Source of the DNA: Candidatus Omnitrophota bacterium
GTDB taxonomy: Bacteria > Omnitrophota > Gorgyraeia > Pluralincolimonadales > Pluralincolimonadaceae
Assembly (NCBI GenBank): GCA_041651455.1
Contig: JBAZJG010000004.1
Coordinates: 72,848-136,847, forward strand
Direction of reading: 5' to 3'
DNA: 64,000 nucleotides
The notes under the pieces were generated by a model. The model made no database searches, was not told the origin of the DNA, and worked only from the letters and a program-made list of their open reading frames with translations. This document shows positions 1 through 50,031 of the stretch, in pieces. A program made the position numbers and the translations under genes. Position 1 is the stretch's first letter. Each line of letters begins with the position of its first letter.

Positions 1-1344
1 GTCACCGGCCTGAACCCCGGCGCCGACCAGAGCACCGGCATATTCTTCTCTACGCTTAAGGAGCGCGACAAGAGGGAGCCGATGAGCAAGGTTGTCCCGA
101 AACTCAGGAGAGAGATGTCCATGATACCTGACGGCGTGGCTTTCGTCATGGCCATACCCGCCCTTAAACTGAGCGCCGGAGGCGAGGCGACCGCGACCGG
201 AAGCAAATATTCGTATACCCTTACCGGCCCCGACCAGGATAAGCTCTATCAATCGTCTTTTAGCCTGGCGGATGCCATGAAAAAACTTCCGGGGTTCCTC
301 GATATCCAGAACAGCACAAGGCTCGACCTTCCGCAGCTGAACATACAGATACTGCGCGACAGGGCCTCCACTCTGGGCATAACCGCGCACGACATCGAAT
401 ATGCGCTGACCCTGGCGTACTCCGGCGGAAAGGTCACGACGTTCAAGACCGACGTCGACCAGTACGATGTCATTGTCGAGCTGACGAAGGATTTCCAGAA
501 GAGGCCCGAGAACCTTTCGCAGATATACGTAAGGTCCTCGATCACGGGCAAGCTCGTGCCGTTGAGCACGGTGGCGAAATGGGAGGTCGATGCCGGCCCC
601 CAGAACGTGCCGCATTTGAACCAGCTCAATTCGGCTACCCTTTCCTTTAACCTTGCCCCCGAGGTCCCCCTCGGCAGCGCGACGAAGGCGCTCGAAGAGC
701 TTACGAGAAAACCCGAAGTGGTGCCGGAAGGCGTTACGGGCTCCCTGCAGGGCGAGGCCGAACAGTTCAAGGAATCCATCGCAAGCCTCGGCATCCTCAT
801 AATCGTCGCCATATTCATAAAGTACATCATACTTGGCATACTCTATGAGAGCTATGTCCACCCGTTCACGATACTTACGACGCTTCCGGTGGCCACGTTC
901 GGCGGCCTTGCGACCCTCTGGCTGTTCGGATCGGAACTGTCCCTCTACGCTTATGTAGGCGTATTCATGCTGCTCGGTATCGTGGCTAAGAACGGCATCA
1001 TGATGGTCGACTTCGCGAACGAGAACCTCGTAAAGAACAACATGAATAACTTTGACGCGATATATAACGCGTGCCTCGTAAGGTTCCGCCCGATCCTGAT
1101 GACGGGCCTTGCGGCTATCATGGGCGCCATGCCCATCGCTCTCGGGTACGGCGCGGACGGCGCTTCAAGAAGGCCCCTCGGGCTTATAGTCGTCGGCGGC
1201 CTTATATTCTCGCAGGTTGTCACGCTCTTCGTCACTCCCGGCATATTCCTTTATATGCAGAAGTTCCAGGAGAAGTTCCTCGACAGGTTCGAGCTGACAC
1301 GCTCCGACGCCGCAAGGAAAATAACGGATAAAGCCAAAGAATAA
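1..1344 (+). CDS. RND (HAE1/AcrB-family) efflux permease, C-terminal half; 5' end lies outside the window
   Basis: The frame is open from nt 1 (VTGLNPGADQSTGIFF... is in frame upstream of the annotated Met). It has a typical RND periplasmic porter subdomain followed by C-terminal TM helices (GIVAKNGIMMVDFANE, ILMTGLAAIMGAMP). Confidence 0.85.
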   Translation, partial: VTGLNPGADQSTGIFFSTLKERDKREPMSKVVPKLRREMSMIPDGVAFVMAIPALKLSAGGEATATGSKYSYTLTGPDQDKLYQSSFSLADAMKKLPGFLDIQNSTRLDLPQLNIQILRDRASTLGITAHDIEYALTLAYSGGKVTTFKTDVDQYDVIVELTKDFQKRPENLSQIYVRSSITGKLVPLSTVAKWEVDAGPQNVPHLNQLNSATLSFNLAPEVPLGSATKALEELTRKPEVVPEGVTGSLQGEAEQFKESIASLGILIIVAIFIKYIILGILYESYVHPFTILTTLPVATFGGLATLWLFGSELSLYAYVGVFMLLGIVAKNGIMMVDFANENLVKNNMNNFDAIYNACLVRFRPILMTGLAAIMGAMPIALGYGADGASRRPLGLIVVGGLIFSQVVTLFVTPGIFLYMQKFQEKFLDRFELTRSDAARKITDKAKE

Positions 1345-1379
1345 AAATCCCTCGCAGATAACCTGCGAGGGATTTCCTA

Positions 1380-1531: not shown

Positions 1532-2110
1532 TTAGATAAACTTTAAGCTCCTGAGTACACGGCTGAACCTCTTATCGAGGGCCGCAAAAACATTTTCTTG
1601 GCAAAATAACTTAATAAAATAGAACTTCCCGCTCTTTTCGAGTATCAGGACCCTCTCTTCCATGCTCACAAAATTCCCTCTCATCGGAAGCGGCGTATCC
1701 AGTGTCTTATATTTATAGACCAGCTCGACGGCTTCCGCACCCAGGATCTTCACGGCTTTCTTGGATAAAAGGTTGAAATCCTTTGATTTTTCGTTCTTTG
1801 CAATCTGGTTGGCAGCGGCGGTTTCCAGGTCTTTAACCGATATAGGCATATTGGACCTTTTTACGGCTAATACCGATATCGCGCTGAGCCTTGAACGGTT
1901 TGGGGTTTCCTTCGGCTCAATAAATATTGCGCTGAAGTACTTGTCTCCGGAACCCCTGTCCTCGGACACCTTCCATCCGGAAGGGTAGAGCATAGAAACG
2001 CCGATCGCGGGATCCTTGTTCTCGTATCTGTCGTATTTGAACCCATCGGAACACCCAAAAATATTCACCATTAGAAAGGCTCCTGCAATTAACAATATAT
2101 TTCTCGGCAT
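1532..2110 (-). CDS. hypothetical lipoprotein (signal peptide plus lipobox FGCS)
   Basis: The likely start is MPRNILLIAGAFLMVNIFGCS. No recognisable catalytic motif. Confidence 0.45.
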   Translation of the reverse strand: MPRNILLIAGAFLMVNIFGCSDGFKYDRYENKDPAIGVSMLYPSGWKVSEDRGSGDKYFSAIFIEPKETPNRSRLSAISVLAVKRSNMPISVKDLETAAANQIAKNEKSKDFNLLSKKAVKILGAEAVELVYKYKTLDTPLPMRGNFVSMEERVLILEKSGKFYFIKLFCQENVFAALDKRFSRVLRSLKFI

Positions 2111-2142: not shown

Positions 2143-3333
2143 TCAATAATCAGGTAAGGTCGAGTAAGAAGGTATTGTTTTAAGCCAGGCCTTGAAGTCG
2201 GCTTCTCCTTTATCGAATTCCGTCTCATAGGTATCCAAGTCGACGTTCGGCCCGTCTCTCACGACATCCCATAGCTCTAGCATAGCGTCGCAGGCGTTAT
2301 ACTCCTGGTCTATCGAATTCCCGGGGTATTGCGTTATATGTATTTCATCGTCCGTCAGTTCCGGATGGGCCGCTTTCGTAGCATCTATCCATTCCTGCGG
2401 ATTATAATCATAATCTGCGTGGGTTGCCTCATGGGCGATCACGCAGGCTACAGCCGCTTCGGTATAGGTTGCAGTCGCATTCTGATTCACGAATATCGTA
2501 TTACCGGTCACAAAAACTCGATTACCGTTATAATCGTACGCGTAATGGTCGTCTATTCCCCACCAAAATGCGATCGCCGAGGAACTTACTCCGTAATCCT
2601 CGTTGTTAACATATACGAGCCTAATATCGTTATCGTTGATCAGGTCAAGCCGGTCAGCCGCCAACGGGGCAAGGCCAAGGTAGTCGAGATAAGATGACGG
2701 GACAGCCGTCTGCGTCGGATGTATTATTCCGTCTTCACTTCCTCCGCCGGTCGGGCTATCCCCAGTATCTTCGCTGCTTGGAGTGCCTCCGCTGGGAGTA
2801 CCTCCGCCGGGGCTTCCTCCTCCGGGGCTGCCGCTGCTCGGACCGCCGCTTGGACTTCCGCTCCCGGGAGGCGTGCTGTCGCCGGTATCGGGACCGCCAA
2901 TATTGTCTCCGCCGAGATCCTGCCCACCCTGATTGACGCTATCGGGAGATATCGGGCCGCTATTATTCCTGGCGACAACTATATCGTCGCCCGTAATATC
3001 CCCTGATTCTATATCATCGCGGATCCTCTCGGCAAGCACGATAAAATTATCGTTCGTTACGCCGACTACCTTATAATTAAACCACCTTGGCTCGATATTT
3101 AGGCCAAGGCGTTCGTTAACTTCCTGCGTATTTTCCGCGGCGACGTACTCGCCTGTTTCAAGTTTCGCAATCTCCTCGGTCTTAGCGATATTCGCAACGG
3201 TCGCGACCGCTTCGACATACTTCGACTTATTTATTGCATTCTTATAGAACGCAAAAATAAGCCCGAAGAACACGGCTATGACCGTGACCGCAAGCAGTAT
3301 CTCTATAAGGCTAAATGCTCTTCTCTTCCTCAT
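2143..3333 (-). CDS. prepilin-type N-terminal methylation-domain protein (pseudopilin-like) with Gly/Ser/Pro-rich linker and C-terminal HExxH (zincin-like) domain
   Basis: N-terminus MRKRRAFSLIEILLAVTVIAVF has a class III signal with E at +5. A repetitive SGSPSGGPSSGSPGGGSPGGGTPSGGTPSS linker follows. The C-terminal domain contains IAHEATHADYD. Confidence 0.6.
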   Translation of the reverse strand: MRKRRAFSLIEILLAVTVIAVFFGLIFAFYKNAINKSKYVEAVATVANIAKTEEIAKLETGEYVAAENTQEVNERLGLNIEPRWFNYKVVGVTNDNFIVLAERIRDDIESGDITGDDIVVARNNSGPISPDSVNQGGQDLGGDNIGGPDTGDSTPPGSGSPSGGPSSGSPGGGSPGGGTPSGGTPSSEDTGDSPTGGGSEDGIIHPTQTAVPSSYLDYLGLAPLAADRLDLINDNDIRLVYVNNEDYGVSSSAIAFWWGIDDHYAYDYNGNRVFVTGNTIFVNQNATATYTEAAVACVIAHEATHADYDYNPQEWIDATKAAHPELTDDEIHITQYPGNSIDQEYNACDAMLELWDVVRDGPNVDLDTYETEFDKGEADFKAWLKTIPSYSTLPDY

Positions 3334-3371
3334 AACACGATTTTACCATAACCAACGAATATTTCAACCTG

Positions 3372-25952: not shown

Positions 25953-26579
25953 TTATGGCCTTTTCCTTAAACCGAGAAGTCCGACAAGGCCTGAACCGAG
26001 AAGAAGCAGGCTCGCGGGCTCGGGTATCGGCGCTGTATCAAGGTAAGCATCATCAAAGTAAGCGGTGCCAGAACCGCCGTCTACGGTCTGGTTCACGAAG
26101 AAAGCCAAAGACGCGTATGACGCGGTGACCGGGGCGGCGCCGCTTATATTAAGGGCTGTCCAGTCATGCGTGCCAGTAAGCACCGGGGACGCGCCGGCCG
26201 TGCCGACCCATCCGCCCGTCGAGTTGAACCAGTCTATCTTGACAAAGGCCTCTTCATTGACAAGGGCGTTGGTCTTGGCGAATATTGTGCCGTAATACGT
26301 GGTGCCGGGTGTAACGGCAGCCATCGTGTTGCTGTACATGAAATAATCGTCGCCCGTGCCGGATGCGCTGTTCGATGTTATCTTCGTCGACTTAACGCCG
26401 GTCCTTGCGGCTTCGGTGCTGCCGTATGTGCCGGTGTGCTGGCTGTTTCCCCAGAGGCCAAGCCACGGGTCCGGGGCCGTATTTTCAAAGCCTGAGTTCG
26501 TGAGCATGTTAGCGGCTTCCGATGCGGAAGCGCTGAACATTACCGCTATAGCTAAAACCAATATTGCGATAAATTTCAT
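25953..26579 (-). CDS. PEP-CTERM-anchored secreted protein with CBM4/9-like domain
   Basis: Signal peptide. NMLTNSGFEN...W start typical of CBM_4_9. C-terminal IPEPASLLLLGSGLVGLLGLRKRP. Confidence 0.8.
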   Translation of the reverse strand: MKFIAILVLAIAVMFSASASEAANMLTNSGFENTAPDPWLGLWGNSQHTGTYGSTEAARTGVKSTKITSNSASGTGDDYFMYSNTMAAVTPGTTYYGTIFAKTNALVNEEAFVKIDWFNSTGGWVGTAGASPVLTGTHDWTALNISGAAPVTASYASLAFFVNQTVDGGSGTAYFDDAYLDTAPIPEPASLLLLGSGLVGLLGLRKRP

Positions 26580-27236: not shown

Positions 27237-28937
27237 TTATGGTGCTTTTTCCAGGGTAAGAGGATTGAATTTGTTCTTGGCGAATATGTACCATGAGGCC
27301 ACGGATACCGTCCCCATATCGGCCCTGCTCCAGTTATAGCCGCCTTCCCTGTTCGCAGTATACGGTATAGTACGGCCCTTCGCCCCCTTGATATTCCTGT
27401 CGACGAGGAAAGCATCCATCTGGTTGGCGTAGAAATACCCTCTTTCCTTGTCGCCTTCGGTAATATACGCGCACGCAATATGGCCTGTACCGTCAAGCCA
27501 TATATTGTTTATGTTTATGTCGGCATGATCGAAGAAACCCATAACTTCTTTGCCGTTCACATTCAACGTCTTGCGGTACCTGAGGTCATATTCCGGGATG
27601 TTCAACAGGGACGCCGTTCCTTTGCCGTATGCAAGGACCCTCCAGGTATAGTTATCCAGCGGAAGCGTATTGCCTTTCAGTACCGAATCGAGCCATATGC
27701 GTATCTTGTCGGCGTACGCGTCCTCCTTGCAGAGTTTTAGCGCGGCATAGCAATCGATATTGCCTTCCGGATGCCCGCCGTCCTCATGGAGCTTCTTGTC
27801 CCCGCTCCTCCATCCGTGCTGTATATAACCGCCTTTTCCGCCCGGATCGTCCTTATACCATGATATCAACAGGTCTTTCAGCATCCCCGTAATATCCCTG
27901 TATCTCTCCGGCCCGTATTCCTTCTCGTAATATTTGTACGCGATAAGAAGCCACGCCATGTCGCCCATCCAGCGGTCCGCCTTGCCGGGGTTATGGTACG
28001 CCGGAAGGTTCCCCTCGTTCCTTAGGTTCACGTACTGGAAGAACCCTCTCGCTTCCCCTTTATAAAAGAAATTCTGGTATGACGGGCACCTGTTATTCCT
28101 GTCCGTTGACTGGGCGTAGAAATCGAGTATGCGTTCCGCCCTTTCTTTTTCGCCCTTCAGGATGAACGCCATCGCGACGAGCGAATTATTGAACGTGTGC
28201 GCCTGATTATCTTCCGCGGTCGGGAGAAGCTGCTTGTCTTCGGAGAAGTTATCCTGGCACAGCTTGAGCCATTCCAATACGAGCGGGTCCTCCGGTACAA
28301 GCTCTGCGTCCCTTCTCTGCTTGAACCCGATGCCTTTCAGTTCCCTGTCCGGGTCAAGCACCGGGCCCACGACCGAGAATGAGGCCGGCAACCCCGGCTT
28401 GCCTAAACCGATCTCGTCCAGGTCCACCGTGCCTTTTCCCTTGCCGGAAAAAGCTATCTCCAGGTTAACAAGCTTATCGAACTTATCGTCCCCGCCCCAT
28501 CCGTATTCAAGGTTATTCCTGTATATCACGACCTCTGTCCAATCCGCATATTTGCCCCTCAGGGGGAATTTCCTGAAGAATACGGAGCCGTCCGCGTCGA
28601 CCAGCTTGATCTCCATGTCCGAAGACGAATCGGACTTGATCAGGAATGTCAAAGGGACATCCTCCGGCATTTTTTCCGTCATCTTCCTGCGTATAAGCAC
28701 CCAACCGTAATCACCCCTGAGCTCATACACCGCCCGGATACCGTCGTCCGACTTTCCCGGCGCGGAGGATATCTCTATGGTACTCTTCCCGTCCATATCG
28801 GCCTTCCACTGGCCAAGGTCGTCCCAGCTCGCCTTCGCGGGGGTTTGGGGCTGCGGCCCGGGTTTTTGCGCTTGCTCATACTCCTTGCAACCGGACACTA
28901 AAAGCAGTAACACCGCCAGACAGGCAACCTTCTTCAT
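27237..28937 (-). CDS. lipoprotein with N-terminal beta-sandwich domain and C-terminal six-hairpin glycosidase-like domain
   Basis: Lipobox LLLVSGC. Paralogous to 32517-34271 (shared WYIFAKNKFNP vs WYIFAKENFNPF motif). Glycosidase assignment is an inference, not motif-verified. Confidence 0.4.
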   Translation of the reverse strand: MKKVACLAVLLLLVSGCKEYEQAQKPGPQPQTPAKASWDDLGQWKADMDGKSTIEISSAPGKSDDGIRAVYELRGDYGWVLIRRKMTEKMPEDVPLTFLIKSDSSSDMEIKLVDADGSVFFRKFPLRGKYADWTEVVIYRNNLEYGWGGDDKFDKLVNLEIAFSGKGKGTVDLDEIGLGKPGLPASFSVVGPVLDPDRELKGIGFKQRRDAELVPEDPLVLEWLKLCQDNFSEDKQLLPTAEDNQAHTFNNSLVAMAFILKGEKERAERILDFYAQSTDRNNRCPSYQNFFYKGEARGFFQYVNLRNEGNLPAYHNPGKADRWMGDMAWLLIAYKYYEKEYGPERYRDITGMLKDLLISWYKDDPGGKGGYIQHGWRSGDKKLHEDGGHPEGNIDCYAALKLCKEDAYADKIRIWLDSVLKGNTLPLDNYTWRVLAYGKGTASLLNIPEYDLRYRKTLNVNGKEVMGFFDHADININNIWLDGTGHIACAYITEGDKERGYFYANQMDAFLVDRNIKGAKGRTIPYTANREGGYNWSRADMGTVSVASWYIFAKNKFNPLTLEKAP

Positions 28938-29149: not shown

Positions 29150-29770
29150 TTATTTCTTTCTTCCTAATCCCATCAAACCAACAAGGCCTGAACCGAGAAG
29201 CAACAGGCTTGCGGGTTCCGGAACGGCAGCGACATCAAAGTTGAAGTTGTCAAAATCGCTTTCGCCGGGAACTTCATACGGATCATTCGCGTACGTACCG
29301 AACATGATCCTTGCCGTAACAGCATCGCTCGGAGCTACTATAACGCCGGTGTCCCCAAGGTTATACTGATCTCTTGTCAAGGCTTTCATGTCGACCATCG
29401 TCTTGCTCGCTAACGTACCATTAGCCCTAAGGAACTTGACTCCGATGTATGAACCCCAGCTGTTGGCAACCGTACCCGAAGGAACTAGCGCATAACCGGT
29501 AAGGTTATACGACTGTCCACCCGTGATGGCAACTTCCTGCTTCATACCGCCATCGTTGTAGTTATGAAGATTGTGAGTCCCGCTCACAGGGTTATCGGTT
29601 ACGACAACCTGGTTTTCCGCATTCCAACCGTCAGGCGCATCAGCTGACCAACCGTACGCATAATCTCCGTCTACCGAGATCTCAAAATCACCGTTGACCA
29701 ACAGGTTCGCGCTGGCTACACCAGGCACCAACAGTACCGCTAAGCTTACCAATGCTACTAATTTACCCAT
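29150..29770 (-). CDS. PEP-CTERM-anchored secreted protein with CBM4/9-like domain
   Basis: NLLVNGDFE start. C-terminal AVPEPASLLLLGSGLVGLMGLGRKK. Operonic with 29781-30413 (10 bp gap, RBS AAAGGAG). Confidence 0.8.
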   Translation of the reverse strand: MGKLVALVSLAVLLVPGVASANLLVNGDFEISVDGDYAYGWSADAPDGWNAENQVVVTDNPVSGTHNLHNYNDGGMKQEVAITGGQSYNLTGYALVPSGTVANSWGSYIGVKFLRANGTLASKTMVDMKALTRDQYNLGDTGVIVAPSDAVTARIMFGTYANDPYEVPGESDFDNFNFDVAAVPEPASLLLLGSGLVGLMGLGRKK

Positions 29771-29780: not shown

Positions 29781-30413
29781 TCACCCCTTTCTTTTTACCT
29801 TTCCCTTATTAAACAACCCTACTCCCAACAATCCACTGCCCAATAACAACATACTGGCGGGTTCCGGAATGGGGGTGGATTCAACGATGAGGTCATCAAA
29901 GATTCCCCTTCCGTCACCACTGCCAGTATTGTTTACTTCCCAAACCATTGTCGCCTTGACTATATCGGATCCGTAGTTTGACGGGGTCACTATAGCCGTC
30001 TTATCGTTCCAAACATTGTCCGTAAGCTCATTACCCGTAAGGCTACCGGTAGTCCACGTTCCTACTATAGAATCGTCCGAACGCTTGAATTCCACTCTTA
30101 ATGAGGCGGATGAACCGTTCCTAAGGGACTCGTTCCCGGCAACATCATCAAACAAATAACCCCCAATCTTATAGGTTGATCCTGGATCTGATATAGCGAT
30201 ATCCTGCCAGCCCGATGTTGCCCACCATCCCGCAGCGGAATAGCTTCCCGAGTTTCCCCAGGTATTTATAGTCGCATTTGTACCGTTCCACTGGCTCCAT
30301 CCGGTAAAATCCCCATTTTCAAACCCGGAGTTTGTCAGAAGATTGGCGTGCGCTATAGGATATGAAGATAACATCATTACAAGGACTGCTATTAATACGG
30401 CTTTTGTCTTCAT
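29781..30413 (-). CDS. PEP-CTERM-anchored secreted protein with CBM4/9-like domain
   Basis: NLLTNSGFENGDFTGW start. C-terminal IPEPASMLLLGSGLLGVGLF...KRKG. Confidence 0.8.
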   Translation of the reverse strand: MKTKAVLIAVLVMMLSSYPIAHANLLTNSGFENGDFTGWSQWNGTNATINTWGNSGSYSAAGWWATSGWQDIAISDPGSTYKIGGYLFDDVAGNESLRNGSSASLRVEFKRSDDSIVGTWTTGSLTGNELTDNVWNDKTAIVTPSNYGSDIVKATMVWEVNNTGSGDGRGIFDDLIVESTPIPEPASMLLLGSGLLGVGLFNKGKVKRKG

Positions 30414-30692: not shown

Positions 30693-31319
30693 CTACTTCT
30701 TGGCGCTCTTATTTCTTATTCCTATAATACCGATCAGGCCTGAACCGAGAAGCAACAGGCTGGCCGGTTCCGGTATCGGCTGCGTATCGATCATGAAATC
30801 ATCGAAAATACCGCGTCCGTCTCCAGAGCCGCTGTTATTGACCTCCCATACAAGAGTCGCATGGTCTATCCCTGCGCCATAGCTTGCCGGGGTCACTACA
30901 GCCGTCTTATCGTTCCACGTGTTGTCCGTCAGGTCGGCTCCTGTCATGTTACCGGTCGTCCAGGTGCCAACGATGTTGTTGGCCGCGTCCTTAAACTCAA
31001 CCCTTATCGATGCATAACCACCGTTCCTTAAGGACTCGTTCGCGGCAACGTCATCAAAGACGTAACCTCCGATCTTCACCGGCGTATTGGCGTCTGCAAT
31101 GATCGCATCCTGCCAGGCCGATGTCGCCCACCATCCTGCAGCAGAGTAATTTCCGGTACGTCCCCAGCTGTTGATAATAGCATTGGTGTCGTTCCACTGT
31201 CCCCAGTCGCTGAAGCTCCCCGTCTCAAATCCCGCGTTGCTGAGAAGATTTGCGGCGTCCGCCTGGGCCGGTATTACAAGAGCTGCTGCAAACAGAAGCA
31301 CTGCAACCAACTTTCCCAT
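30693..31319 (-). CDS. PEP-CTERM-anchored secreted protein with CBM4/9-like domain
   Basis: Start reset to MGKLVAVLLF (strong SD GGAAAGGAGG). C-terminal PIPEPASLLLLGSGLIGIIGIRNKSAKK. Confidence 0.8.
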   Translation of the reverse strand: MGKLVAVLLFAAALVIPAQADAANLLSNAGFETGSFSDWGQWNDTNAIINSWGRTGNYSAAGWWATSAWQDAIIADANTPVKIGGYVFDDVAANESLRNGGYASIRVEFKDAANNIVGTWTTGNMTGADLTDNTWNDKTAVVTPASYGAGIDHATLVWEVNNSGSGDGRGIFDDFMIDTQPIPEPASLLLLGSGLIGIIGIRNKSAKK

Positions 31320-31340
31320 ATCTTTTCCTCCTTTCCTCAA

Positions 31341-31463
31341 TTCGACACGTGTTGAGTTATTCATTACAATAATCCCTTGCCGGAATTATAGGGATTTATT
31401 TAGAGTGATTCGACACGTGTTTAATTGTTAATTTATTATGCATTAATTAAGTGCCTGTGTCAA
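31341..31463 (-). promoter_or_regulatory. promoter (-35 TTGACA 31458-31463, -10 CATAAT 31435-31440) plus two TTCGACACGTGTT operator repeats (31409-31421 and 31341-31353)
   Basis: Same architecture as the 30431-30573 unit. The repeats flank a small hairpin, ATCCCT-n12-AGGGAT, in the 5'UTR. Confidence 0.5.
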
Positions 31464-31494: not shown

Positions 31495-32517
31495 TTAGGC
31501 GGGCTTGACGGACTCCCTCCGGATGTATTCCGGAGTGAATATAACCGTATCATTCTCTACCTTTTTCCCCGATACTATATCCAAAAGCATCTGTGCGGCG
31601 GTCTTGCCTATCTCGACCAGCGGAAGCCTCATGGAACTTAACGTCGGAGATCCCGGGGGAAAAGGGAACATGTCGTTAAAACCTATTACCGAAATATGCT
31701 CGGGGACCGAAAGGCCGGCATCACGTATCCTTCTTATTGCGGCAAGCGCCATGACGTCGTCGGAAGCCACTATGCCGGTGATCCTCGGCTCCTGCTTCAA
31801 CAGGATCCCGGTAGCTTCGTATGCCTTCTCATAGATGAACAACCCTTCGGCCACGAGGTTTTCGTCGAATCCCGCGCCAGCTTCAGATAGCGCTTTTTTA
31901 TATCCGGCGAGCCTGTCCTGGTCGAGTTGGAACCTTAACGCGCCGCTGAGGAACGCTATCCTCTTATGGCCGGTGTCGAGCAATTCTTTTGTCGCCCTGA
32001 AAAGGCCTTCCTTGTTATCTATCAGGACTTTCGGTATCTTTATGCCCTTGATGTACCTGTTCACAAGCACTATCGGGAACTTCTTTTCGAAGAGCGTCGT
32101 CACATCCTTCTCGAGCGCCTCTTCGACAAGTATGCACATGCCGTCGACCCTTTTTTCTTCGAAGGCCTTCATGTAATACGGGGAAAGCGGCTCTTCTTTT
32201 GGCTTGATCGCGCGGGTCAACTGGAAATAATAACCGTTCTTCTCCAGCACTCCGGCGATACCGCTGACCACATGGCTGAAATACGAATAATATATGTCCT
32301 CGAAATCCTTTACCACCACGGCGATATTAAACGTCTTCCTGCTGACAAGGCTGCGGGCTATCACGTTAGGAGTGAAATCGAGGTCCGCGACCACCTTGCT
32401 GACCCTCTCCTGTGTCTTCTTGCCCACCTTCTGAAGGTCCTTCCCGTTAATGACCCTCGAGACGGTGCTTATGGACACTTTCGCCTTTTTGGCTATGTCT
32501 TTATATGTGTATGCCAT
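31495..32517 (-). CDS. LacI-family transcriptional regulator
   Basis: N-terminal HTH (YKDIAKKAKVSISTVSRVING) and periplasmic-binding-protein-like sugar-binding core. It is the last gene of the operon 34923 to 31495. Confidence 0.85.
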   Translation of the reverse strand: MAYTYKDIAKKAKVSISTVSRVINGKDLQKVGKKTQERVSKVVADLDFTPNVIARSLVSRKTFNIAVVVKDFEDIYYSYFSHVVSGIAGVLEKNGYYFQLTRAIKPKEEPLSPYYMKAFEEKRVDGMCILVEEALEKDVTTLFEKKFPIVLVNRYIKGIKIPKVLIDNKEGLFRATKELLDTGHKRIAFLSGALRFQLDQDRLAGYKKALSEAGAGFDENLVAEGLFIYEKAYEATGILLKQEPRITGIVASDDVMALAAIRRIRDAGLSVPEHISVIGFNDMFPFPPGSPTLSSMRLPLVEIGKTAAQMLLDIVSGKKVENDTVIFTPEYIRRESVKPA

Positions 32518-34271
32518 TAATTAAGGTATATCCTATACAGGTTCACCGCGGAATTCCCGCTGCAATCCTCCACCCTTACCTCGAACGTCATCTTTCTTAC
32601 GCCTTCCCTGTCAAATATTCCGTTCCCGTAATTTTGCAATTCCGGGCTCCTCTTGAACCCGTCCTTCATGTCCAGTGAAAAACTCTCCGGCTCGCCGCCA
32701 TAAAGGTATATCGGGATGCTTTCAAATGGCTCGCCTTCTTTGTCATACACTTTTACCTTTATGGACGTTTTCTGCGCGCTGCCGGAAAGCTCCAGGTTCA
32801 ATTTGCCGTACTTTCCCCAATCCTGCGGACAGAGAAAAGGACGGCTGATCGTCCCCCAGCAGGTTTTCGCCGTCTCTTCCGGCTCGATGGTTATCTTCAT
32901 CGTATTTACTAGTTTACCTTTAGATGATGCCGCCGGCGCCAATTTCCTTGATATCTTGCAATGCCCCGCCGAGACCATCTCCGAAGGATACGCCGTCTCG
33001 AATTTTATGCTGCCATCCGTGAAATAGTCTATTACCGGGACGAACTGGAAGGCGGGCTTATAATCGATGCTGTCGACTGTCTTGTTCGCCCGTTCCTCGT
33101 CCTGTCCCATCGAAAATGGGTTGAAATTCTCTTTCGCGAATATATACCAGCAAGTGCTCGATATACATAGCGGGCGGTCCTGCATAATCCAGCTGCCGTA
33201 AGCGGTCGTGCCTTCGTTCGTCGCGTATGGCAATGCCGAAGCGTTCTTGTGGACAGAACTGGCCGTAAGCGCCTTGTCCAGCTCCGACAGGAAATGCGCG
33301 CTCTCGTCTTTCCTTCCGGCCCTGTCGAACGCGAGGACCATCTGGGCTGTGCCTTCCAGCCATACGGAATCTTTGTCCGGATAATGGGACTTTTCGTAGG
33401 TGGAACCGAAATCGAAGCCCTCTATTTCGACACCGTTGACCTTATACATCTTCTTCGTAAGGCTCTTGTCTATCGCGAAATCGAGCGTGGGCCCGTAAGC
33501 GCGCCCGAGCGCGAGGACCGCCCAGCTCGACTGGTCGGTCGCGAAATTAGGGTTGTCCCTGCCCATATTGAACCTTTTCTGTTCTTTGTTCCAGGCGGCG
33601 TTCTCCATCCAGAACTTTATCTCTTTCGCGACGCCGAGGCACCGCATATCGCCGGTAAGCACACCGAGGTCCCTGAACGCTGCATAAGAGTCGAGATTGT
33701 GTTCGACAGATATCCATGTCATCGGCTCCCCGTTTCCGTAATATCCGCCTATGATCCCGCCTTCTATCGACTGCAGCGACATCAGCCATTCAACAAGCGT
33801 CTCCGCAAGGTCCGAATACCTGATATCTTTCGATACATATGTATAATGGTTTATCGCGATGAGCATCCATGCGTTCGGGCCCGCAGCCCACGTCTTTCCC
33901 CAGCGCCCGTCCTTGCGATAGGCATCACTGAACCCTATGAACTTGCCGTATTTCTTTATCTCCTTGCGGTAGGTGCTGTCGAAGAAATCCAGCACCTGCC
34001 TTGCCCTTTTCAAATCGCCGCGGGAGGTAAAGACAATGACGGCAAGGGCCTGGTCATAGGTAAAACAATCGGTCCCGCCCTCATAGCTCGGAAGCAGCCC
34101 CGACGTAAAGAATATCAGGCGCCGGTTCGATTCCTGCTGCGCGACAAGCCACCTGTATGCCTTGTCCGTTCCATCGTCCTGCATCGGGCCGGGATCCTGC
34201 CCCCAGCACACCGGCCCGGCACATAGCACACATAACAACGCAGACGCCGTAAGGGCGCGTATTTTATTCAT
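32517..34271 (-). CDS. secreted six-hairpin glycosidase-like protein with C-terminal beta-sandwich (CBM-like) domain
   Basis: Signal peptide at MNKIRALTASALLCVLCAGPVCWG. Paralog of 27237-28937 with reversed domain order. Function is an inference. Confidence 0.4.
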   Translation of the reverse strand: MNKIRALTASALLCVLCAGPVCWGQDPGPMQDDGTDKAYRWLVAQQESNRRLIFFTSGLLPSYEGGTDCFTYDQALAVIVFTSRGDLKRARQVLDFFDSTYRKEIKKYGKFIGFSDAYRKDGRWGKTWAAGPNAWMLIAINHYTYVSKDIRYSDLAETLVEWLMSLQSIEGGIIGGYYGNGEPMTWISVEHNLDSYAAFRDLGVLTGDMRCLGVAKEIKFWMENAAWNKEQKRFNMGRDNPNFATDQSSWAVLALGRAYGPTLDFAIDKSLTKKMYKVNGVEIEGFDFGSTYEKSHYPDKDSVWLEGTAQMVLAFDRAGRKDESAHFLSELDKALTASSVHKNASALPYATNEGTTAYGSWIMQDRPLCISSTCWYIFAKENFNPFSMGQDEERANKTVDSIDYKPAFQFVPVIDYFTDGSIKFETAYPSEMVSAGHCKISRKLAPAASSKGKLVNTMKITIEPEETAKTCWGTISRPFLCPQDWGKYGKLNLELSGSAQKTSIKVKVYDKEGEPFESIPIYLYGGEPESFSLDMKDGFKRSPELQNYGNGIFDREGVRKMTFEVRVEDCSGNSAVNLYRIYLN

Positions 34272-34923
34272 TCGATAACATGAAATCATCCAGGTATACG
34301 GTGGCTCCCGGGCCGTTGCCTACATCGGCTCCGAAGGCTATGCCGATATTGTCGAGAGATTTAACGTCTATGCCGGACTTGCGCAGTCCGGCTACGGATA
34401 TCGTTATCTTCTTCCATTCCTTCGTGGCCGATTCAACCGATATCTTTGTCTGCGGCATATAACTCGGCGCGTGGCTGTCCCTGAGGACTATTTCCATGTT
34501 CTCGCCGCCGTTCTCGCCCTTTACCCAGAACTCTATGTTCTTGAAGCCGGATATGTCCTTGCTCTTGACCTTCTTCGGGACTGGAACGGCATCGGTTACC
34601 GGGCCCATATCTATCGAAAAACTTCCCCATGCCTCTGATGCCTTGCTTCCGAGGGCGTTGACAAGTCGGAACGATTGCTTCCCGCTATGAACGTTCCTCA
34701 TATCATACCCCGGCACGTCCGGAGCATAGTACCAGCTGAACGGGGTGTTCTTGTCTTCCCAATTAGGTTCCAAAGACCCGTAGACCCCGACCTCGCCTCC
34801 GAGGTTGTTCGGATGGCCTTCAAAATCCGCTATGACTGTGATGCTCTCTTCGGAAAACGATTGCCCAGGAATAAAAAATATAGCGACAGTTACCGCCGCT
34901 ATAAGAAATATCAGTCCTTTCAT
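34264..34923 (-). CDS. secreted CBM-like (jelly-roll) protein
   Basis: Signal peptide. Domain resembles the beta-sandwich modules of the two glycosidase-like proteins. Preceded by a TTTACA-17-TATAAT promoter. Confidence 0.45.
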   Translation of the reverse strand: MKGLIFLIAAVTVAIFFIPGQSFSEESITVIADFEGHPNNLGGEVGVYGSLEPNWEDKNTPFSWYYAPDVPGYDMRNVHSGKQSFRLVNALGSKASEAWGSFSIDMGPVTDAVPVPKKVKSKDISGFKNIEFWVKGENGGENMEIVLRDSHAPSYMPQTKISVESATKEWKKITISVAGLRKSGIDVKSLDNIGIAFGADVGNGPGATVYLDDFMLSNE

Positions 34924-40384: not shown

Positions 40385-41422
40385 CTATTTAAAATCGAGG
40401 AATCCCGAGTCCTTCATCCACCTGTAGGTGACGACCACGACGACGACAAGCGCCGCGATAGCGTATAACCCTTTTATCCCCCTGAAGCTCAGGGCTATCA
40501 TCCCGAAACATGTAGAAAGGAAATACAGGGAGAGGACCACTCTCCTTTGCGACTCATCCCTGAACAGCAATTTGTGGTGTATGTGCTCTTTGTCGGCCTG
40601 AAATATGTGTTTCTTCTTCGCAAGGCGTCGGACTATCGCCAGCGTCGTATCTATTATAGGAACCCCGAGCGCTATGACCGGGACAAAAAGGGTTATTATC
40701 GTCTTGCTCTTCTGGAAACTTATGACCGATATCGCCGCTAACGCAAAACCGAGGAACATGCTTCCGGGATTGCCCATGAAGATGCGGGCCGGGTAGAAAT
40801 TATACGGCAGGAAACCCGCGCATGCGCCTACGAGCGCAAACGCAAGGAACGCGATCACGTATTCATGCTGGTCGATCGCCGAGAGGAATATGAAGAACGA
40901 GGATATGGCCGACACTCCGGCGGCAAGCCCGTCGAGCCCGTCGAGAAGATTTATCGCGTTAGTTATGCCTATTATCCATATCATCGTGAAGATGACGCCG
41001 AGGAAGCCGAGCGAGACCTTCCCTACGAACGGTATGGTGAACTCCTCGACGACAAATCCGCACGCCACGAGTATAGCAGCGGCTATCACTTGAACGAAGA
41101 GTTTCGGCCTGGCCCTCATCGGTTTTATATCGTCGATGACGCCGAGGATGACTATCATAGCGGCAGCGACGCAAAAACCGGCGTACTTCAGGGAGAACCT
41201 GTCCATAGCTCCGGGGATCGCGTAAAAAGCCACCAGCGTCCCGGCAAAAAAAGCGACGGCGATGGCTACTCCGCCCATCGTCGGCATATTGCCCCTGTGG
41301 ACCTTCCTGCCGCCGGGCTTATCGACAACGCCGAGGCCGATAGCGACGGCCCTTACTATGGGCGTCAGAACCAGCGCAACGGCCCCGGAGACGCAGAATG
41401 TGGCCAGGTAACCCCTAAGCAT
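40385..41422 (-). CDS. undecaprenyl-phosphate sugar-1-phosphate transferase (WecA/MraY family)
   Basis: Ten to eleven TM helices. Motifs NAINLLDGLDGLAAG and DxxK-type. This is the initiating transferase of glycan assembly. Confidence 0.8.
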   Translation of the reverse strand: MLRGYLATFCVSGAVALVLTPIVRAVAIGLGVVDKPGGRKVHRGNMPTMGGVAIAVAFFAGTLVAFYAIPGAMDRFSLKYAGFCVAAAMIVILGVIDDIKPMRARPKLFVQVIAAAILVACGFVVEEFTIPFVGKVSLGFLGVIFTMIWIIGITNAINLLDGLDGLAAGVSAISSFFIFLSAIDQHEYVIAFLAFALVGACAGFLPYNFYPARIFMGNPGSMFLGFALAAISVISFQKSKTIITLFVPVIALGVPIIDTTLAIVRRLAKKKHIFQADKEHIHHKLLFRDESQRRVVLSLYFLSTCFGMIALSFRGIKGLYAIAALVVVVVVTYRWMKDSGFLDFK

Positions 41423-42631
41423 TTATTTTATGCCCCCTTCGAATATCTTTTCCAGGTCCCTTATGTTATTTTCCCAGTTGAAATTTTCTTCCGCATATCT
41501 TCTCGACATCAACGACAACCTTTCCCTGAGCGGCCTGTCTTCCATGACCCTTACGACGTTCCCGGCAAAACTTTCGGGGGAATCCGACATCAGCACTCCG
41601 GTCTCCCGCCCTGCCTGCATCCATTGGGTAGATATCGTCGTAGATACCACCGGCAACCCCATCGCCATGGCTTCCATCACTTTATTCTGCATGCCGGTAG
41701 CCGCCCTTATCGGGCAAACGAGAGCGGCGGCATCGCCCAGATGCACCCTCGTATCTTCAACGGGTCCGGTGACAAACACGCTCCTGCCGTCGGCAAGCTT
41801 TTTTATCTTCTCCGGCGGGTTGGACCCGACTATATAAAAAACGGCGCCGGGCCGTGCTCTTTTGACGGCGGGAAAGATCTTGCCGTAGAAATACAATACC
41901 GCATCCCTGTTCGGAAAACTATGCAAATTGCCTATAAACACTATCTTGTTATCGTCGTATCCCTTCGGAGAAGGACTAAAATACCCGAGGTCTACCCCGT
42001 TCGGGATGATGGATATGCTCTTTTCCGAGGCAAGCGCTTTTTCTGACCTCAGGTCCGCATCCGAAATAAGCAGCGACCTGTCGAAGGAGCGCACGGCTTC
42101 AGGTTCGTACCTGCGGACCTTGAGCCACTCGACCAGGTAGAACAGGTAGAAGACGTGCTTCCTGTATTTCAGCGACCTGTACAGGCTCAGGGACAGCGAA
42201 TCGGTAAGGTCGAGGACCCTTCTCTCATCCTTGCGGCCACGGGCATATTGCGCCATTCTGAGCAGGTGGACATAAATGCCGTCATATTTTTCGGACGACA
42301 TCATGCTATCCGCCTTGTCGCGCATCCTGCCTTCCTTGTAATAAGCGACCTGGAAAGGCACGGCCGTCGGGGATAAAAGCAGGCATTTGGCGTATGAATC
42401 GGCAGGCTTCAAAAGTACGGTCTCTATGCGCGCACAATACTTGCCCAGTTCACCCAGGTATTTCTTTTCTTCTTCGGATTCTATGAAAGATAACAGGTGT
42501 ATGGCATGCCTGGCGGAAAGGTATTTGATGAAATTAAATACCCTGAGCTTATCCCCGCCGTAAGGCGGATATGGAAGGCGTGACGTCAGGAATAATATTT
42601 TCACCGGTTCACCATGCCTTTTGTGCGGCAT
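41423..42631 (-). CDS. glycosyltransferase (GT-B fold, GT1/GT4-like)
   Basis: C-terminal EX7E-like region (QNKVMEAMAMGLPVVST). Confidence 0.8.
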   Translation of the reverse strand: MPHKRHGEPVKILFLTSRLPYPPYGGDKLRVFNFIKYLSARHAIHLLSFIESEEEKKYLGELGKYCARIETVLLKPADSYAKCLLLSPTAVPFQVAYYKEGRMRDKADSMMSSEKYDGIYVHLLRMAQYARGRKDERRVLDLTDSLSLSLYRSLKYRKHVFYLFYLVEWLKVRRYEPEAVRSFDRSLLISDADLRSEKALASEKSISIIPNGVDLGYFSPSPKGYDDNKIVFIGNLHSFPNRDAVLYFYGKIFPAVKRARPGAVFYIVGSNPPEKIKKLADGRSVFVTGPVEDTRVHLGDAAALVCPIRAATGMQNKVMEAMAMGLPVVSTTISTQWMQAGRETGVLMSDSPESFAGNVVRVMEDRPLRERLSLMSRRYAEENFNWENNIRDLEKIFEGGIK

Positions 42632-44291
42632 AAGATATTGAATTTAGATTATTCTTCCATCCATCCCAGGTCGTAACAATAATCCCGAGGCATTTTTTGC
42701 TCCCCTTGGTCACATTCAGCCATTTATCAATATTCCCGGTATCCTTGTAACCCGCAGCGAGATAGTCGAAACCTTGCGAACTATAGAAATTGGGTGAATT
42801 TTTCATCTTAGACAAGTTGTCCGATTCATCATACCACCAGGACATCAGGATAATATCATTTGGCATTATGTAAATAGCGTCCGATGTTTTTCCCGCTTTC
42901 CCGCCGTACTGCTCCTGATAAGAATTGTCGCCACCATTATGCCAAGGATTCACCATGTCATCCCAAATCAATAACCTTGTCCCAAGACCATAGCTCGCCA
43001 CATAATCATTTATTCTTGATAATTCATCAGCCAACAACTCTGCGTTAGATAAATTCCTTTTTAGGCACCGGGAATCTCTATTCATTCCCCTTATTTCATC
43101 GTGGGTTACACTTATATAATGCGGTTGGAATTCCCGCATAATACCTCCTAATACTTTGTTAATGACATTATAAGTGCGTTCTGACGATGGGCAGTATGGA
43201 ACGCTCCATTCGCAATCCTTGCATTTTTTCCCAACATAATCATAGCTTACCAGTATCTCGTCTCCGTCCTCAATATTTCCGTCATTGATTCTTAGTATTC
43301 TTGTAGGTCTGGCATTGGCTGGATAGGGATAGTTCGTTTCGCCGTCTATTATCTTGTAATCGATGTTTTCTCTGAATATGCCGGTACCATTACAATTTTT
43401 TACAACAATATCCGAATCTTCGCTCCTTATTACGTTTATCAGGGCCTCTCCCGCCTTTTGTAACGGGATAGCCTCATTATTAACGAATCTAAATCTCTCG
43501 CTGTCTACGAATATTCCCTCTGCAGTCATGGGGTCTATATAAAACACATCGATCCCCACTCCGAATGTTGATATCTCGGGAACTGCTGTAATATAGTTTT
43601 CTTCTGCGTATGCAAATACCTCCTTTAGCCTTTCCAGGTTATCCCCCCTGTCCAGCTGGTAGTATTTTCCACTTTGAAATATTACAAAGTTCATCTTTTG
43701 GCGCGCCATCATATTTATAAGTTCTTTTGCCTCGTCCAGGTTTGCCCCCATGATATGCACCCCCCTAAACCTGGTCTTTGGATAATCTACGATTTTTACC
43801 GCATCCAAGATCAGTTCCCCTTGCTTTGCTTGGAATAATTGCAGCAATGTCTGAGTCCCGTAAAACACACCTTGCGGCGTGTTCCCGGCGACTACTATAT
43901 GATCCCTGAATATATCTATCACATATCCTTCATCTCCGAGTATTTGTGATGGAATAATTTCATCTTTAAGCTGTGGATTACTATTTTCCAGATCCGTCTC
44001 TAACGCTAAGATAATATTGTTCTTTATGTCTGCGGAAGAGGCCATGCTTACGGGTATAAGCAGGTTCGTGTCCTCAAAGCAACTATTTGAAAATCTGCTC
44101 GCCGTACCGTAAAGATCGCTGTTGCCGGGTAAGCAGATTATTTTCCATTTGTTGTCTACTTTAATAGTGTAATTTTTCGCGATACAGGCCTTTACCTCTG
44201 GCTTTAACCGACTGCCCAGGATGTCCGCAGATTCGATTGAGAAAAGCGGCATTAATAACGCTATCGTAATAAACAGTATCCTTTTATTCAT
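42609..44291 (-). CDS. secreted GH20-like TIM-barrel glycosidase-fold protein
   Basis: Signal peptide. DYPKTRFRGVHIMGANLDEAKELINMMARQKMNFVIFQ resembles the GH20/hexosaminidase N-terminal barrel, but the canonical H-x-H/D-E pair was not confirmed. Lies in the low-GC DNA. Confidence 0.35.
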   Translation of the reverse strand: MNKRILFITIALLMPLFSIESADILGSRLKPEVKACIAKNYTIKVDNKWKIICLPGNSDLYGTASRFSNSCFEDTNLLIPVSMASSADIKNNIILALETDLENSNPQLKDEIIPSQILGDEGYVIDIFRDHIVVAGNTPQGVFYGTQTLLQLFQAKQGELILDAVKIVDYPKTRFRGVHIMGANLDEAKELINMMARQKMNFVIFQSGKYYQLDRGDNLERLKEVFAYAEENYITAVPEISTFGVGIDVFYIDPMTAEGIFVDSERFRFVNNEAIPLQKAGEALINVIRSEDSDIVVKNCNGTGIFRENIDYKIIDGETNYPYPANARPTRILRINDGNIEDGDEILVSYDYVGKKCKDCEWSVPYCPSSERTYNVINKVLGGIMREFQPHYISVTHDEIRGMNRDSRCLKRNLSNAELLADELSRINDYVASYGLGTRLLIWDDMVNPWHNGGDNSYQEQYGGKAGKTSDAIYIMPNDIILMSWWYDESDNLSKMKNSPNFYSSQGFDYLAAGYKDTGNIDKWLNVTKGSKKCLGIIVTTWDGWKNNLNSISYAAQKAW

Positions 44292-45396: not shown

Positions 45397-45415
45397 TGAT
45401 TCGTTTGTCAAGCGA

Positions 45416-49111: not shown

Positions 49112-49122
49112 GTTCCATCCTG

Positions 49123-50031
49123 TTAGCCTAAAACACAATACCTTATTATGCCCAAATGGCCTTTCATTCTTTCATTTAAATCTCCCCTTCTTACGCCAAC
49201 AACATAAAACGGGAGATAGCATATTATCTTAAGGCCTGATGTTAGCGTTGCGCAACATTTATATACCAATGCGGGGAATGCGCCGTATAGTTTTTTTAGC
49301 AGCTTATGCATACCCTTATAAGCTTCTATTGACATTTCCGCTTTACACTGCTGACTGCTCCCTTTCATATAATGGATTATGCTCGCATCCGGCATATAGA
49401 ATATCTTCATCTTGTTCTTTTTTATTTGATAGCAAAGATCTATATCGTCTCCATACATGAAATACCTTTCATCCAATAGCCCTATTCTTTCAAAAGTGGT
49501 CTTTCTTACCATCATGCAGCATCCTGAAAGCACTTCTATTTCATGGGTATACTCATAATCATTGGCTTTCGTTTTTGACTCATCCAGCATTAACCGTTCT
49601 GGTAATATCAGGCGCATTATTTCCTTCCCCAGGGAGGGGACATTTCTGAAGTATGGATGCAAAGTACCGTCGCCATTGAGAATCTTACAGCCTAGCGCTG
49701 CCGCCTGCTGATTCTCCGCCATATACCTTACCATTTTATCCGCAGCACTATCGAGCATGACTGTATCGGGGTTTAGTATTAATATATAGTCGCCCTTGCT
49801 TACTTTTATAGCTTGGTTATTTGCTTTATTGAAGCCGAGGTTCTCGATATTCTTAATTAAAATTACTTCCTTATATTCCGAGGATAACATTTCCTGGCTT
49901 CCGTCTTTTGAGTTATTATCTACGACTATTATTTCGTAGGTAATCTCTTTTGTCGTCTTACGAATTGACTCGATGCATTGCTTGAGAAGCAATTGGGTAT
50001 TCCAATTCACTATCGCAATGGAAAGATCCAT
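49123..50031 (-). CDS. glycosyltransferase family 2
   Basis: SIAIVNWNT ... VVDNNSKDGS ... DxD, GT-A fold. Confidence 0.85.
   Translation of the reverse strand: MDLSIAIVNWNTQLLLKQCIESIRKTTKEITYEIIVVDNNSKDGSQEMLSSEYKEVILIKNIENLGFNKANNQAIKVSKGDYILILNPDTVMLDSAADKMVRYMAENQQAAALGCKILNGDGTLHPYFRNVPSLGKEIMRLILPERLMLDESKTKANDYEYTHEIEVLSGCCMMVRKTTFERIGLLDERYFMYGDDIDLCYQIKKNKMKIFYMPDASIIHYMKGSSQQCKAEMSIEAYKGMHKLLKKLYGAFPALVYKCCATLTSGLKIICYLPFYVVGVRRGDLNERMKGHLGIIRYCVLG

Follow-up and report, generated by a model that had tools for sequence, protein, structure and literature searches.

Architecture of the pilin-fusion gene

Why does a protein that begins like a pilin end in a domain with an HExxH motif? 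The question is raised by an open reading frame (ORF) on the minus strand of a 64,000-nucleotide stretch of a Candidatus Omnitrophota contig (JBAZJG010000004.1), the whole of which is called the window here. This single ORF (2143..3333) encodes 396 amino acids plus a stop codon, and its public record is labeled only [quoted passage not shown]. A preliminary description of this DNA had proposed a prepilin head, a low-complexity tract, and a C-terminal HExxH domain, and this three-part layout was borne out: a type IV pilin module (amino acids 1–133) is followed by a 72-residue Gly/Ser/Pro/Thr linker and a C-terminal domain of approximately 190 residues that contains the motif HEATH. On the basis of sequence comparisons and predicted structures, we consider the product probably to be a modular type IV pilin carrying a zinc-dependent hydrolase, most likely a metallopeptidase, as its cargo (probability roughly 0.6). 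The adjoining gene downstream, which the preliminary description had missed, encodes a PsbP-fold lipoprotein that is a near-obligatory companion of the HExxH domain. The parts of the fusion gene, with the evidence for each, are as follows.

2143..3333, minus strand: whole gene, putative modular pilin (pilin module, tether, HExxH domain); NCBI MFA5164547.1
3316..3333, minus strand: leader peptide MRKRRA, amino acids 1–6, with predicted prepilin-peptidase cleavage after Ala6 (N_methyl and TIGR02532 above cut-off)
2935..3315, minus strand: mature pilin module, amino acids 7–133, with a hydrophobic alpha1N, an alpha1 of about 52 residues, a short helix, and a beta head of four strands (AlphaFold2, Foldseek)
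2719..2934, minus strand: flexible tether, amino acids 134–205 (75% Gly/Ser/Pro/Thr; weak 12–15 bp tandem arrays at 2776–2863)
2146..2718, minus strand: zincin-like putative metallopeptidase/effector domain, amino acids 206–396 (profile, AlphaFold2, conservation)
2419..2433, minus strand: HEATH (H301, E302, H305) on the active-site helix, predicted to supply two zinc ligands and the catalytic base (sequence, conservation, model helix 91–109)
2299..2316, minus strand: SIDQEY, amino acids 340–345; E344 is a candidate third zinc ligand and starts the next long helix (conservation, model helix 140–157)
2203..2205, minus strand: E377, within a G-E motif, which completes the five invariant residues of the domain (conservation)
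2146..2157, minus strand: conserved C-terminal end L-P-[DE]-[YF]-COOH, also present in non-pilin relatives (alignments)

When the whole protein was used in family and structure searches, only the N-terminal methylation motif was significant; an aKG-HExxH hydroxylase model (E = 0.18) and MJ1213 (E = 2) were matched too faintly to be usable alone. A chance ORF or a chance motif was ruled out, because homologs exist and the HExxH motif is invariant among them.

The pilin module

The N-terminus reads MRKRRA/FSLIEILLAVTVIAVFFGLIFAF (MRKRRA/FSLIE..., the slash marking the predicted cleavage position), with Phe at +1 and Glu at +5, and it scores above the cut-offs of both Pfam N_methyl (23.5 bits versus 21.2) and TIGR02532 (17.8 versus 16.3), as is characteristic of a class III signal. 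The AlphaFold2 model of amino acids 1–137, built with 14 homologous N-terminal modules, had a mean predicted local distance difference test score (pLDDT) of 79.4 and adopted the lollipop fold, in which a 52-residue helix (residues 9–60) is followed by a short helix and four strands. The three best Foldseek matches in the PDB were all type IV pilins (probabilities 0.99–1.00), namely Thermus thermophilus PilA4 (6xxd; template modeling [TM] scores 0.58/0.63, probability 1.00), Neisseria meningitidis PilV (5v23), and Pseudomonas aeruginosa PilE (4noa). Because the model has the lollipop fold and type IV pilins are its closest structural matches, the N-terminal part is predicted to be a full pilin module and more than a signal peptide. 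The same head is conserved in approximately 55 family representatives. The preliminary description had called this part a pseudopilin; the class III signal and the pilin fold stand, whereas its membership of the type II secretion system (T2SS) was not established, the head resembling the pilins of type IV pili. As a candidate, the T2SS major pseudopilin GspG was rejected, since the match to TIGR01710 reached 21.5 bits against a cut-off of 88.85 and covered the N-terminal helix only.

The tether

The low-complexity tract that had been estimated at about 60 residues is real and slightly longer, at 72 amino acids. It consists of 75% Gly/Ser/Pro/Thr and 12.5% Asp/Glu and is devoid of aromatic and basic residues except for a single His at the C-terminal edge; the GC content of its DNA is 65%, compared with 51% across the gene. 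Tandem Repeats Finder (TRF) detected three short arrays within it, with 2.4–2.9 copies of degenerate 12–15 bp units and scores of 38–53. As the tether DNA is only weakly repetitive by this measure, the earlier idea that it is a slippage-prone repeat finds little support. Variation in tract length among homologs, which had been suggested as a check, was wide: a Gly/Ser/Thr/Pro tract lay between the N-terminus and the enzyme domain in 80 of 87 long members, with a median length of 85 amino acids and a range of 16–131. These differences are better described as those of a generally unconstrained low-complexity sequence. Since the tract is kept throughout the family while its length varies, a long flexible tether appears to be a selected feature whose length is free to vary. 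In some members, additional modules have been inserted between the tether and the HExxH domain, such as an FN3-like segment in P0091 (locus L001, 3666–5090) and about six Cys-rich Stig1-like repeats in P0019.

The C-terminal HExxH domain

The sequence IAHEATHADYD, previously assigned to a C-terminal domain of about 170 residues, was confirmed at amino acids 299–309, in a domain of about 190 residues. Conservation was counted after all profile matches had been aligned to the profile of the C-terminal domain. Among the family representatives, H301 was present in 116 of 116 sequences, E302 in 114 of 116, and H305 in 116 of 117; downstream, E344 of SIDQEY was retained in 141 of 142 and W355 in 136 of 142, and G376-E377 and the terminal L-P-[ED]-[YF] were each found in about 90%. 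In a 25-sequence alignment spanning the family, H301, E302, H305, E344, and E377 were the only invariant columns. The putative metal-binding motif of the preliminary description is, in short, essentially invariant in about 116 representatives, and it is followed by a Glu conserved to the same degree.

The AlphaFold2 model of the domain was confident (pLDDT 82.7; predicted TM score 0.83). It contains five strands, then the long HEATH helix (model residues 91–109), and later a second long helix (140–157) opened by SIDQEY. The modeled domain has a zincin topology rather than a non-enzymatic fold, with the order of sheet, active-site helix, and "glutamate helix" that is seen in gluzincins, and E344 is a candidate third ligand of a predicted metal site with H301 and H305. 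When this model was compared with the PDB using Foldseek, selecase (4qhi) ranked first (E = 0.07, probability 0.77), followed by BlaR1, SPRTN, ZMPSTE24, and HtpX. A profile hidden Markov model (HMM) built from the 25-sequence alignment likewise reached selecase (E = 0.008), with YME1, BepA, and an M48 peptidase next; a 6-sequence alignment had returned only spurious matches to maltose-binding protein fusions in the same PDB search. Selecase and the other minigluzincins (MJ1213; PDB 4qhf–4qhj) and the M48/M56 zincins (HtpX, BepA, ZMPSTE24, and BlaR1) share with the window domain a small size, a beta-sheet, an HExxH helix, and a ligand-bearing helix, but the similarity is marginal (profile E 0.008, fold E 0.07) and lies mainly in the sheet and the HExxH helix, whereas only the window family has the SIDQEY helix, G-E377, and the LP[DE]Y C-terminus. 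Moreover, selecase is a soluble archaeal protein with neither an export module nor a partner, unlike the family described here.

A Pfam scan of 110 relatives gave matches to DUF6782 ("putative metallopeptidase") in 22, to SprT-like in seven, and to Tox-MPTase4 and M48 in two each. The 22 DUF6782 matches (PF20573; E ≤ 0.01) were short non-pilin proteins with the pattern HEGTH-x7-SIDQEY, which lay at or just above the threshold over profile positions of about 15–120, up to the HExxH motif. When four relatives were scanned singly, three exceeded the 27-bit gathering threshold (27.2–32.9 bits) and one (P0136) scored 18.0. Neither the window protein nor the pilin-fused branch reaches this model, even at E ≤ 10, and DUF6782 is itself uncharacterized.

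Alternatively, the domain may have a zincin fold but hydrolyze some other amide or ester bond, for example in a peptidoglycan stem peptide or in a lipid head group, or it may be a metal-dependent binding or adhesion module displayed on the pilus. All similarity to characterized peptidases is weak, the family has extra invariant features with no known counterpart (SIDQEY, G-E377, and the C-terminal LP[DE]Y), and most characterized modular pilins carry binding modules (PMC8179133). However, the general-base Glu of HExxH, for which a module that only binds would have no need, is kept in 114 of 116 sequences, and all detectable PDB and Pfam relatives belong to peptidase families. Typically, too, it is a dangerous enzyme rather than an adhesin that has a dedicated, co-evolving partner. 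We consider a function other than that of a peptidase to be quite improbable. The notion of a pilin-borne protease, which the preliminary description had raised, is supported by the invariance of HExxH, by the predicted zincin topology, by best matches that are weak but exclusively to metallopeptidases, and by the pilin fold.

The sub-lineage of the window protein also has an insertion of about 16 residues (IDDHYAYDYNGNRVFVTG; window amino acids 259–276, nucleotides ~2506–2559), which is shared with L002, P0054, and L016 and is absent from most of the family. It lies in the sheet that precedes the HExxH helix and was modeled as two extra strands.

Distribution of the family

A word-indexed homology search with the C-terminal domain returned only five proteins, all of which carry HEATHADY, SIDQEY, and the C-terminal LP[DE]Y, and the family was exposed only when 1.8 billion cluster representatives were searched exhaustively with a profile (185 matches at E ≤ 1e-3; 121 at E ≤ 1e-10). 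Most of the matching proteins are 360–440 amino acids long, with the domain at the C-terminus. Scanning one genome per species yielded 35 loci, most with record titles naming Omnitrophota, five labeled Planctomycetia or Planctomycetales, and one labeled Patescibacteria. The C-terminal domain of one ortholog was 73% identical to that of the window. The domain family is Omnitrophota-wide, most of its full-length members being pilin fusions.

Nearly every full-length homolog begins with a class III-type N-terminus, of which there are three kinds: T4-pilin (GFTLIE-like), Flp-like (G/FLTSEYA), and TadE-like (G/QSTLEVA). Ca. Velamenicoccus archaeovorus LiM (CP019384.1, region 1626893–1639201) has two complete cassettes in tandem (L033, 4882–8879), one with a T4-pilin-type N-terminus (476 amino acids) and the other with a TadE-like N-terminus (407 amino acids), each followed by its own PsbP-like gene. 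In one locus (L009, 5365–6518), the homolog is split within the C-terminal domain into overlapping ORFs of 271 and 123 amino acids, and represents either a frameshifted pseudogene or an assembly error.

The partner gene

The gene directly downstream of the pilin fusion, and two sites that flank the pair, are located as follows.

1532..2110, minus strand: partner gene, encoding a 192-amino-acid PsbP-fold lipoprotein (MPRNILLIAGAFLMVNIFG/C), 32 nucleotides downstream of the pilin gene (Pfam, synteny, alignment)
3340..3367, minus strand: sigma-70-like promoter match (TTGAAA-16-TG-TAAAAT) just upstream of the pilin-gene start codon (consensus match only)
1343..1377, minus strand: strong terminator-like hairpin (16 pairs plus a T-run) 3' of the partner gene (consensus match only)

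The promoter-like and terminator-like sites bracket exactly the pilin and partner genes and would make them a two-gene transcription unit. The lipoprotein signal of the partner ends in …NIFG/C, and its assignment to the PsbP fold is borderline, with 24.0 bits for Pfam PsbP (cut-off 23.5) and 25.3 for PsbP_2 (cut-off 27); a longer 204-amino-acid version of the ORF gave similar values. Across the family, the assignment rests on borderline Pfam matches in seven of 25 partners, and a profile search of the PDB with the partner family gave nothing meaningful.

An HExxH gene followed on the same strand by a partner homolog, within 0–30 nucleotides, was found in about 31 of the approximately 33 loci with room for one, and genomes with two HExxH genes have two partners. 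The lipobox Cys was present in about 17 of 25 partners. No other neighboring gene was conserved across the loci. In two loci (L010, 6493–7236; L012, 1764–2507), the PsbP-like gene is replaced by a different one that encodes a 247-amino-acid protein with an N-terminal membrane segment, unrelated to the PsbP-like family, which may be an alternative partner. The PsbP-like protein, whose gene is the conserved second member of the cassette, is a candidate inhibitor or immunity protein of the HExxH domain.

The enzyme–partner pair outside Omnitrophota

The distant relatives that match DUF6782 lack pilin N-termini. In a metagenome-assembled genome of Anaerolineales (MBS1252575.1; L037, 4715–6653), a WXG100 gene (35.8 bits) lies directly upstream of a gene for a 335-amino-acid HExxH protein with a helical N-terminal half, and this is followed by a gene for a 206-amino-acid protein with no signal peptide. 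The last was aligned to the profile of the Omnitrophota partners with a probability of 99.0% (hhalign, E = 8e-18). A second non-pilin locus, on an unassigned contig (L038, 941–2441), has the same helical-N-terminal architecture and a 178-amino-acid cytoplasmic partner (hmmsearch, E = 6e-20); the WXG100 gene was seen only at the former locus. The helical N-terminal half did not match the Pfam LXG model. A PsbP-like downstream gene was thus present at both of the two non-pilin loci for which DNA was available. Two further non-pilin relatives have unannotated genes for 163–187-amino-acid proteins directly downstream, and a more remote relative with a signal peptide has no downstream partner. The Anaerolineales locus is probably a T7SS-type (type VII secretion system) toxin–partner locus in Chloroflexota, and appears to be undescribed.

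Because the pair recurs outside Omnitrophota on a different export handle, it is an old and portable cassette. The partner is predicted to be cytoplasmic where export would start in the cytoplasm and periplasmic where a prepilin-borne enzyme would wait. The presence or absence of the lipoprotein signal according to context suggests that the location of the partner tracks the compartment in which the enzyme waits before export, and the association of the partner with the enzyme domain across unrelated export modules suggests that it recognizes this domain and not the export handle.

Divergence of the modules

Percentage identities were compared module by module in three pairs of loci.

Window versus L002: pilin module 94, enzyme domain 73, partner 54
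Window versus L016: pilin module 83, enzyme domain 46, partner 30
L003 versus L004: pilin module 88, enzyme domain 52, partner 27

Over the sub-lineages, the pilin module was 83–94% identical, the C-terminal domain 42–73%, and the partner 27–54%. Such a gradient, from a conserved delivery module through a C-terminal domain that evolves faster to a downstream gene that evolves faster still, has been described for polymorphic toxin–immunity systems (PMC3482391). The C-terminal domain was always of one family, however, without any observed exchange for an unrelated toxin. The informative measure here is the contrast in absolute conservation, not the global correlations.

This contrast bears on what the partner does. 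With the same architecture of the pilin fusion, the partner could be an Eag-like export chaperone or adaptor that keeps the enzyme module, or the subunit, ready for loading into the filament, and the enzyme could act on targets that are absent from the producer, in which case no immunity would be needed. PsbP/MOG1-like genes beside toxins of type VI secretion systems (T6SS) have been proposed to encode adaptors between toxin and apparatus, or chaperones (PMC3482391), and the partner occurs in whichever compartment houses the enzyme ahead of export. Against this, the gene is always directly downstream, the canonical position of an immunity gene, and encodes the fastest-diverging part of the locus (27–54% versus 83–94% for the pilin module), which would be unusual for the chaperone of a conserved export module. 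It also follows the enzyme domain across pilin, Flp, TadE, and helical N-termini, and does not follow the export handle. Although not negligible, a chaperone role strikes us as rather unlikely, and we favor an inhibitor or immunity function.

Filament subunit or membrane anchor

Several observations weigh against a filament-borne metallopeptidase. The C-terminal domain had no significant match to a solved zincin (Foldseek, best E 0.07 with TM scores of 0.25–0.43; HMM, best E 0.008), and at E ≤ 10 the window protein matches no peptidase family, DUF6782 included. At −1, Ala takes the place of the canonical Gly, and removal of the leader by a prepilin peptidase is an assumption. Housekeeping genes, and not a pilus cluster, surround the gene. 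Genes for a prepilin peptidase, an assembly ATPase, or a platform protein were not found anywhere in the 64-kb window, in which the only other filament-related genes are a secretin gene and two DUF1559 pilin-like genes approximately 50 kb away. The role of the partner is ambiguous, because the PsbP/Mog1-fold proteins beside T6SS toxins have been proposed as adaptors. Finally, the divergence of the enzyme domain correlated only weakly with that of the partner in a mirror-tree-style comparison (rho 0.22–0.35), which did not separate the models.

In an alternative reading, the class III signal and the hydrophobic helix would serve only to anchor the protein in the inner membrane, and it would never be polymerized. 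It would then be a membrane-anchored periplasmic protease, acting for example in envelope quality control or processing, with the lipoprotein as its regulator, adaptor, or substrate. The location of the gene among housekeeping neighbors fits this reading, as do the periplasmic partner and the presence among the closest solved relatives of the envelope quality-control and signaling zincins BepA, HtpX, and BlaR1. The −1 residue was Gly in about 32, Ala in about 17, and Ser in about six of the family representatives, and with Ala or Ser, which occupy this position in about 40% of the T4-type members, cleavage could be poor or absent; either the prepilin peptidases of Omnitrophota tolerate these residues or part of the family is unprocessed. 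However, a mere anchor would not need the complete pilin head, which is kept at 83–94% identity where the enzyme is at 42–73%. The enzyme domain also occurs on three kinds of filament-subunit N-termini and elsewhere on a helical protein beside a WXG100 gene, which points to export, and the tether of 16–131 amino acids is conserved family-wide. Taken together, these features make retention in the periplasm an unlikely alternative to incorporation into a filament.

Proposed mechanism

If the protein is a filament subunit, the prepilin would be inserted into the inner membrane, and its leader MRKRRA would be removed by a prepilin peptidase. The pilin module (alpha1 plus the four-stranded head) would then join a type IV filament that leaves the cell through a secretin, probably as a low-abundance or tip subunit; a location at the tip was considered the most likely for modular pilins by Raynaud et al. 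(2021, PMC8179133). Display on a filament is further favored by the secretin and the other pilin genes of the window. The 72-residue tether would let the HExxH domain swing clear of the filament and cleave a target that lies on another cell or in the environment. Meanwhile, the periplasm, in which the enzyme domain would await its export, would also house the PsbP-fold lipoprotein, which would bind this domain as its cognate inhibitor or immunity protein; a function as an export chaperone is less likely.

By analogy with polymorphic toxins and their immunity proteins, the enzyme–partner pair resembles a weapon that is exported with a type IV filament as its carrier and that comes with a safety catch of its own. 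In a bolder and tentative form, which is possible but which we would not count as probable, the type IV filaments of Omnitrophota (type IVa pilus [T4aP]-like and Tad) would deliver a polymorphic-toxin-type cassette composed of a zincin on a leash of 60–130 amino acids and an immunity lipoprotein that silences it in the periplasm. The extended pilus would act as a contact-dependent proteolytic weapon on the envelopes of prey or hosts, and Chloroflexota would export the same pair by a WXG100/T7SS-type route. In Omnitrophota, T4aP have been described as nearly universal and Tad systems as frequent (PMC10066038). A role in attack or feeding at the contact site is speculation, attractive because these bacteria are inferred to be predators or parasites and almost all have T4aP.

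Relationship to known systems

More than 1,200 modular pilins in 264 architectures have been catalogued, among them proteins with predicted S74 and M26 peptidase modules (PMC8179133). A pilus-borne peptidase, which the preliminary description had thought unusual, is in this respect not unprecedented. Like the Streptococcus sanguinis modular pilins PilB and PilC (PMC8179133), the window protein joins an N-terminal class III signal and small pilin module to an unrelated functional module. The window family differs in that this module is an undescribed HExxH domain, on a Gly/Ser-rich tether of 16–131 amino acids rather than a short loop; that it also occurs on Flp- and TadE-type N-termini; and that it has an obligatory partner gene. 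Because the HExxH family is absent from domain databases, it would have been invisible to that InterPro-based survey of modular pilins. We found no experimentally characterized peptidase-carrying pilin in the literature searched.

The second comparison is with polymorphic toxins (Zhang et al. 2012, PMC3482391), in which the zincin toxin domains Tox-MPTase1–5 and HopH1/NleD-like sit on interchangeable trafficking modules. The window family likewise has an HExxH domain of about 150–190 amino acids at the C-terminus, interchangeable N-termini (the same domain is found on T4-pilin, Flp-like, TadE-like, and helical ones), a small downstream gene, and a conserved N-terminus with a faster-evolving C-terminus and partner, and two relatives weakly match Tox-MPTase4. 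However, pilin, Flp, and TadE are not among the catalogued trafficking modes (the word "pilin" occurs 0 times in PMC3482391), and that catalogue gives no immunity family for Tox-MPTase1–5. The window family, for its part, has a single C-terminal family, and its toxicity is putative.

As for the partner, we take the PsbP-fold chaperones beside T6SS effectors to be the Eag proteins (DUF1795/PsbP-Mog1-fold). These resemble it in being PsbP-fold proteins encoded beside an exported toxin gene. In contrast to Eag, the window partner is encoded downstream rather than upstream, is a predicted periplasmic lipoprotein in the pilin systems, and follows the enzyme domain, not a transmembrane N-terminus.

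Modular pilins and zincin toxin cassettes are each already known, and it is their combination that is unusual. Neither the HExxH/SIDQEY domain of the pilin branch nor the PsbP-fold partner is covered by Pfam or NCBIfam, and the proteins are labeled only as prepilin-type or "hypothetical"; no mention of DUF6782 was found in the literature searched, and none of the pilin-fused HExxH proteins were found in papers on Omnitrophota. What appears to be new is a modular pilin family with an undescribed, putative zincin effector domain and a dedicated partner, as a cassette shared with WXG100-linked proteins of Chloroflexota, and two unannotated protein families, the HExxH/SIDQEY domain and the PsbP-fold partner, are hereby defined. 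Omnitrophota are uncultivated ultra-small bacteria thought to be predators or parasites, and almost all of them encode type IV and Tad pili (PMC10066038). A pilin-tethered zincin with a safety-catch protein would be a testable candidate for how contact becomes damage or feeding, and two copies are present in Ca. Velamenicoccus archaeovorus, the only cultured predator. If this reading is true, type IV filaments would join the trafficking modes of toxin–immunity cassettes, and the family would be the first of enzyme-bearing modular pilins with enough sequences for structure–function work.

Other features of the window

The remaining filament-related genes and their immediate neighbor are the following.

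52601–54217: secretin
54204–56264: GAF-GGDEF response regulator, adjoining the secretin gene and the tandem pilin-like genes
56623–57030 and 57063–57470, minus strand: a tandem pair of pilin-like genes (N_methyl and DUF1559/SBP_bac_10) whose first ~50 residues, at least, are identical

Elsewhere in the window, three genes encode PEP-CTERM-motif proteins of about 210 amino acids (25953–26579, 29781–30413, and 30693–31364, minus strand), and among them lie larger ORFs with no Pfam match (27237–28937, 32517–34289, and 29150–29770). An exopolysaccharide/O-antigen-like cluster (~40385–52597, minus strand) is located directly upstream of the secretin gene and encodes glycosyltransferases (GT4, GT1, GT9, and GT2) along with a Wzy_C ligase/polymerase, a GH20-like protein, and a chain-length protein of the GNVR type.

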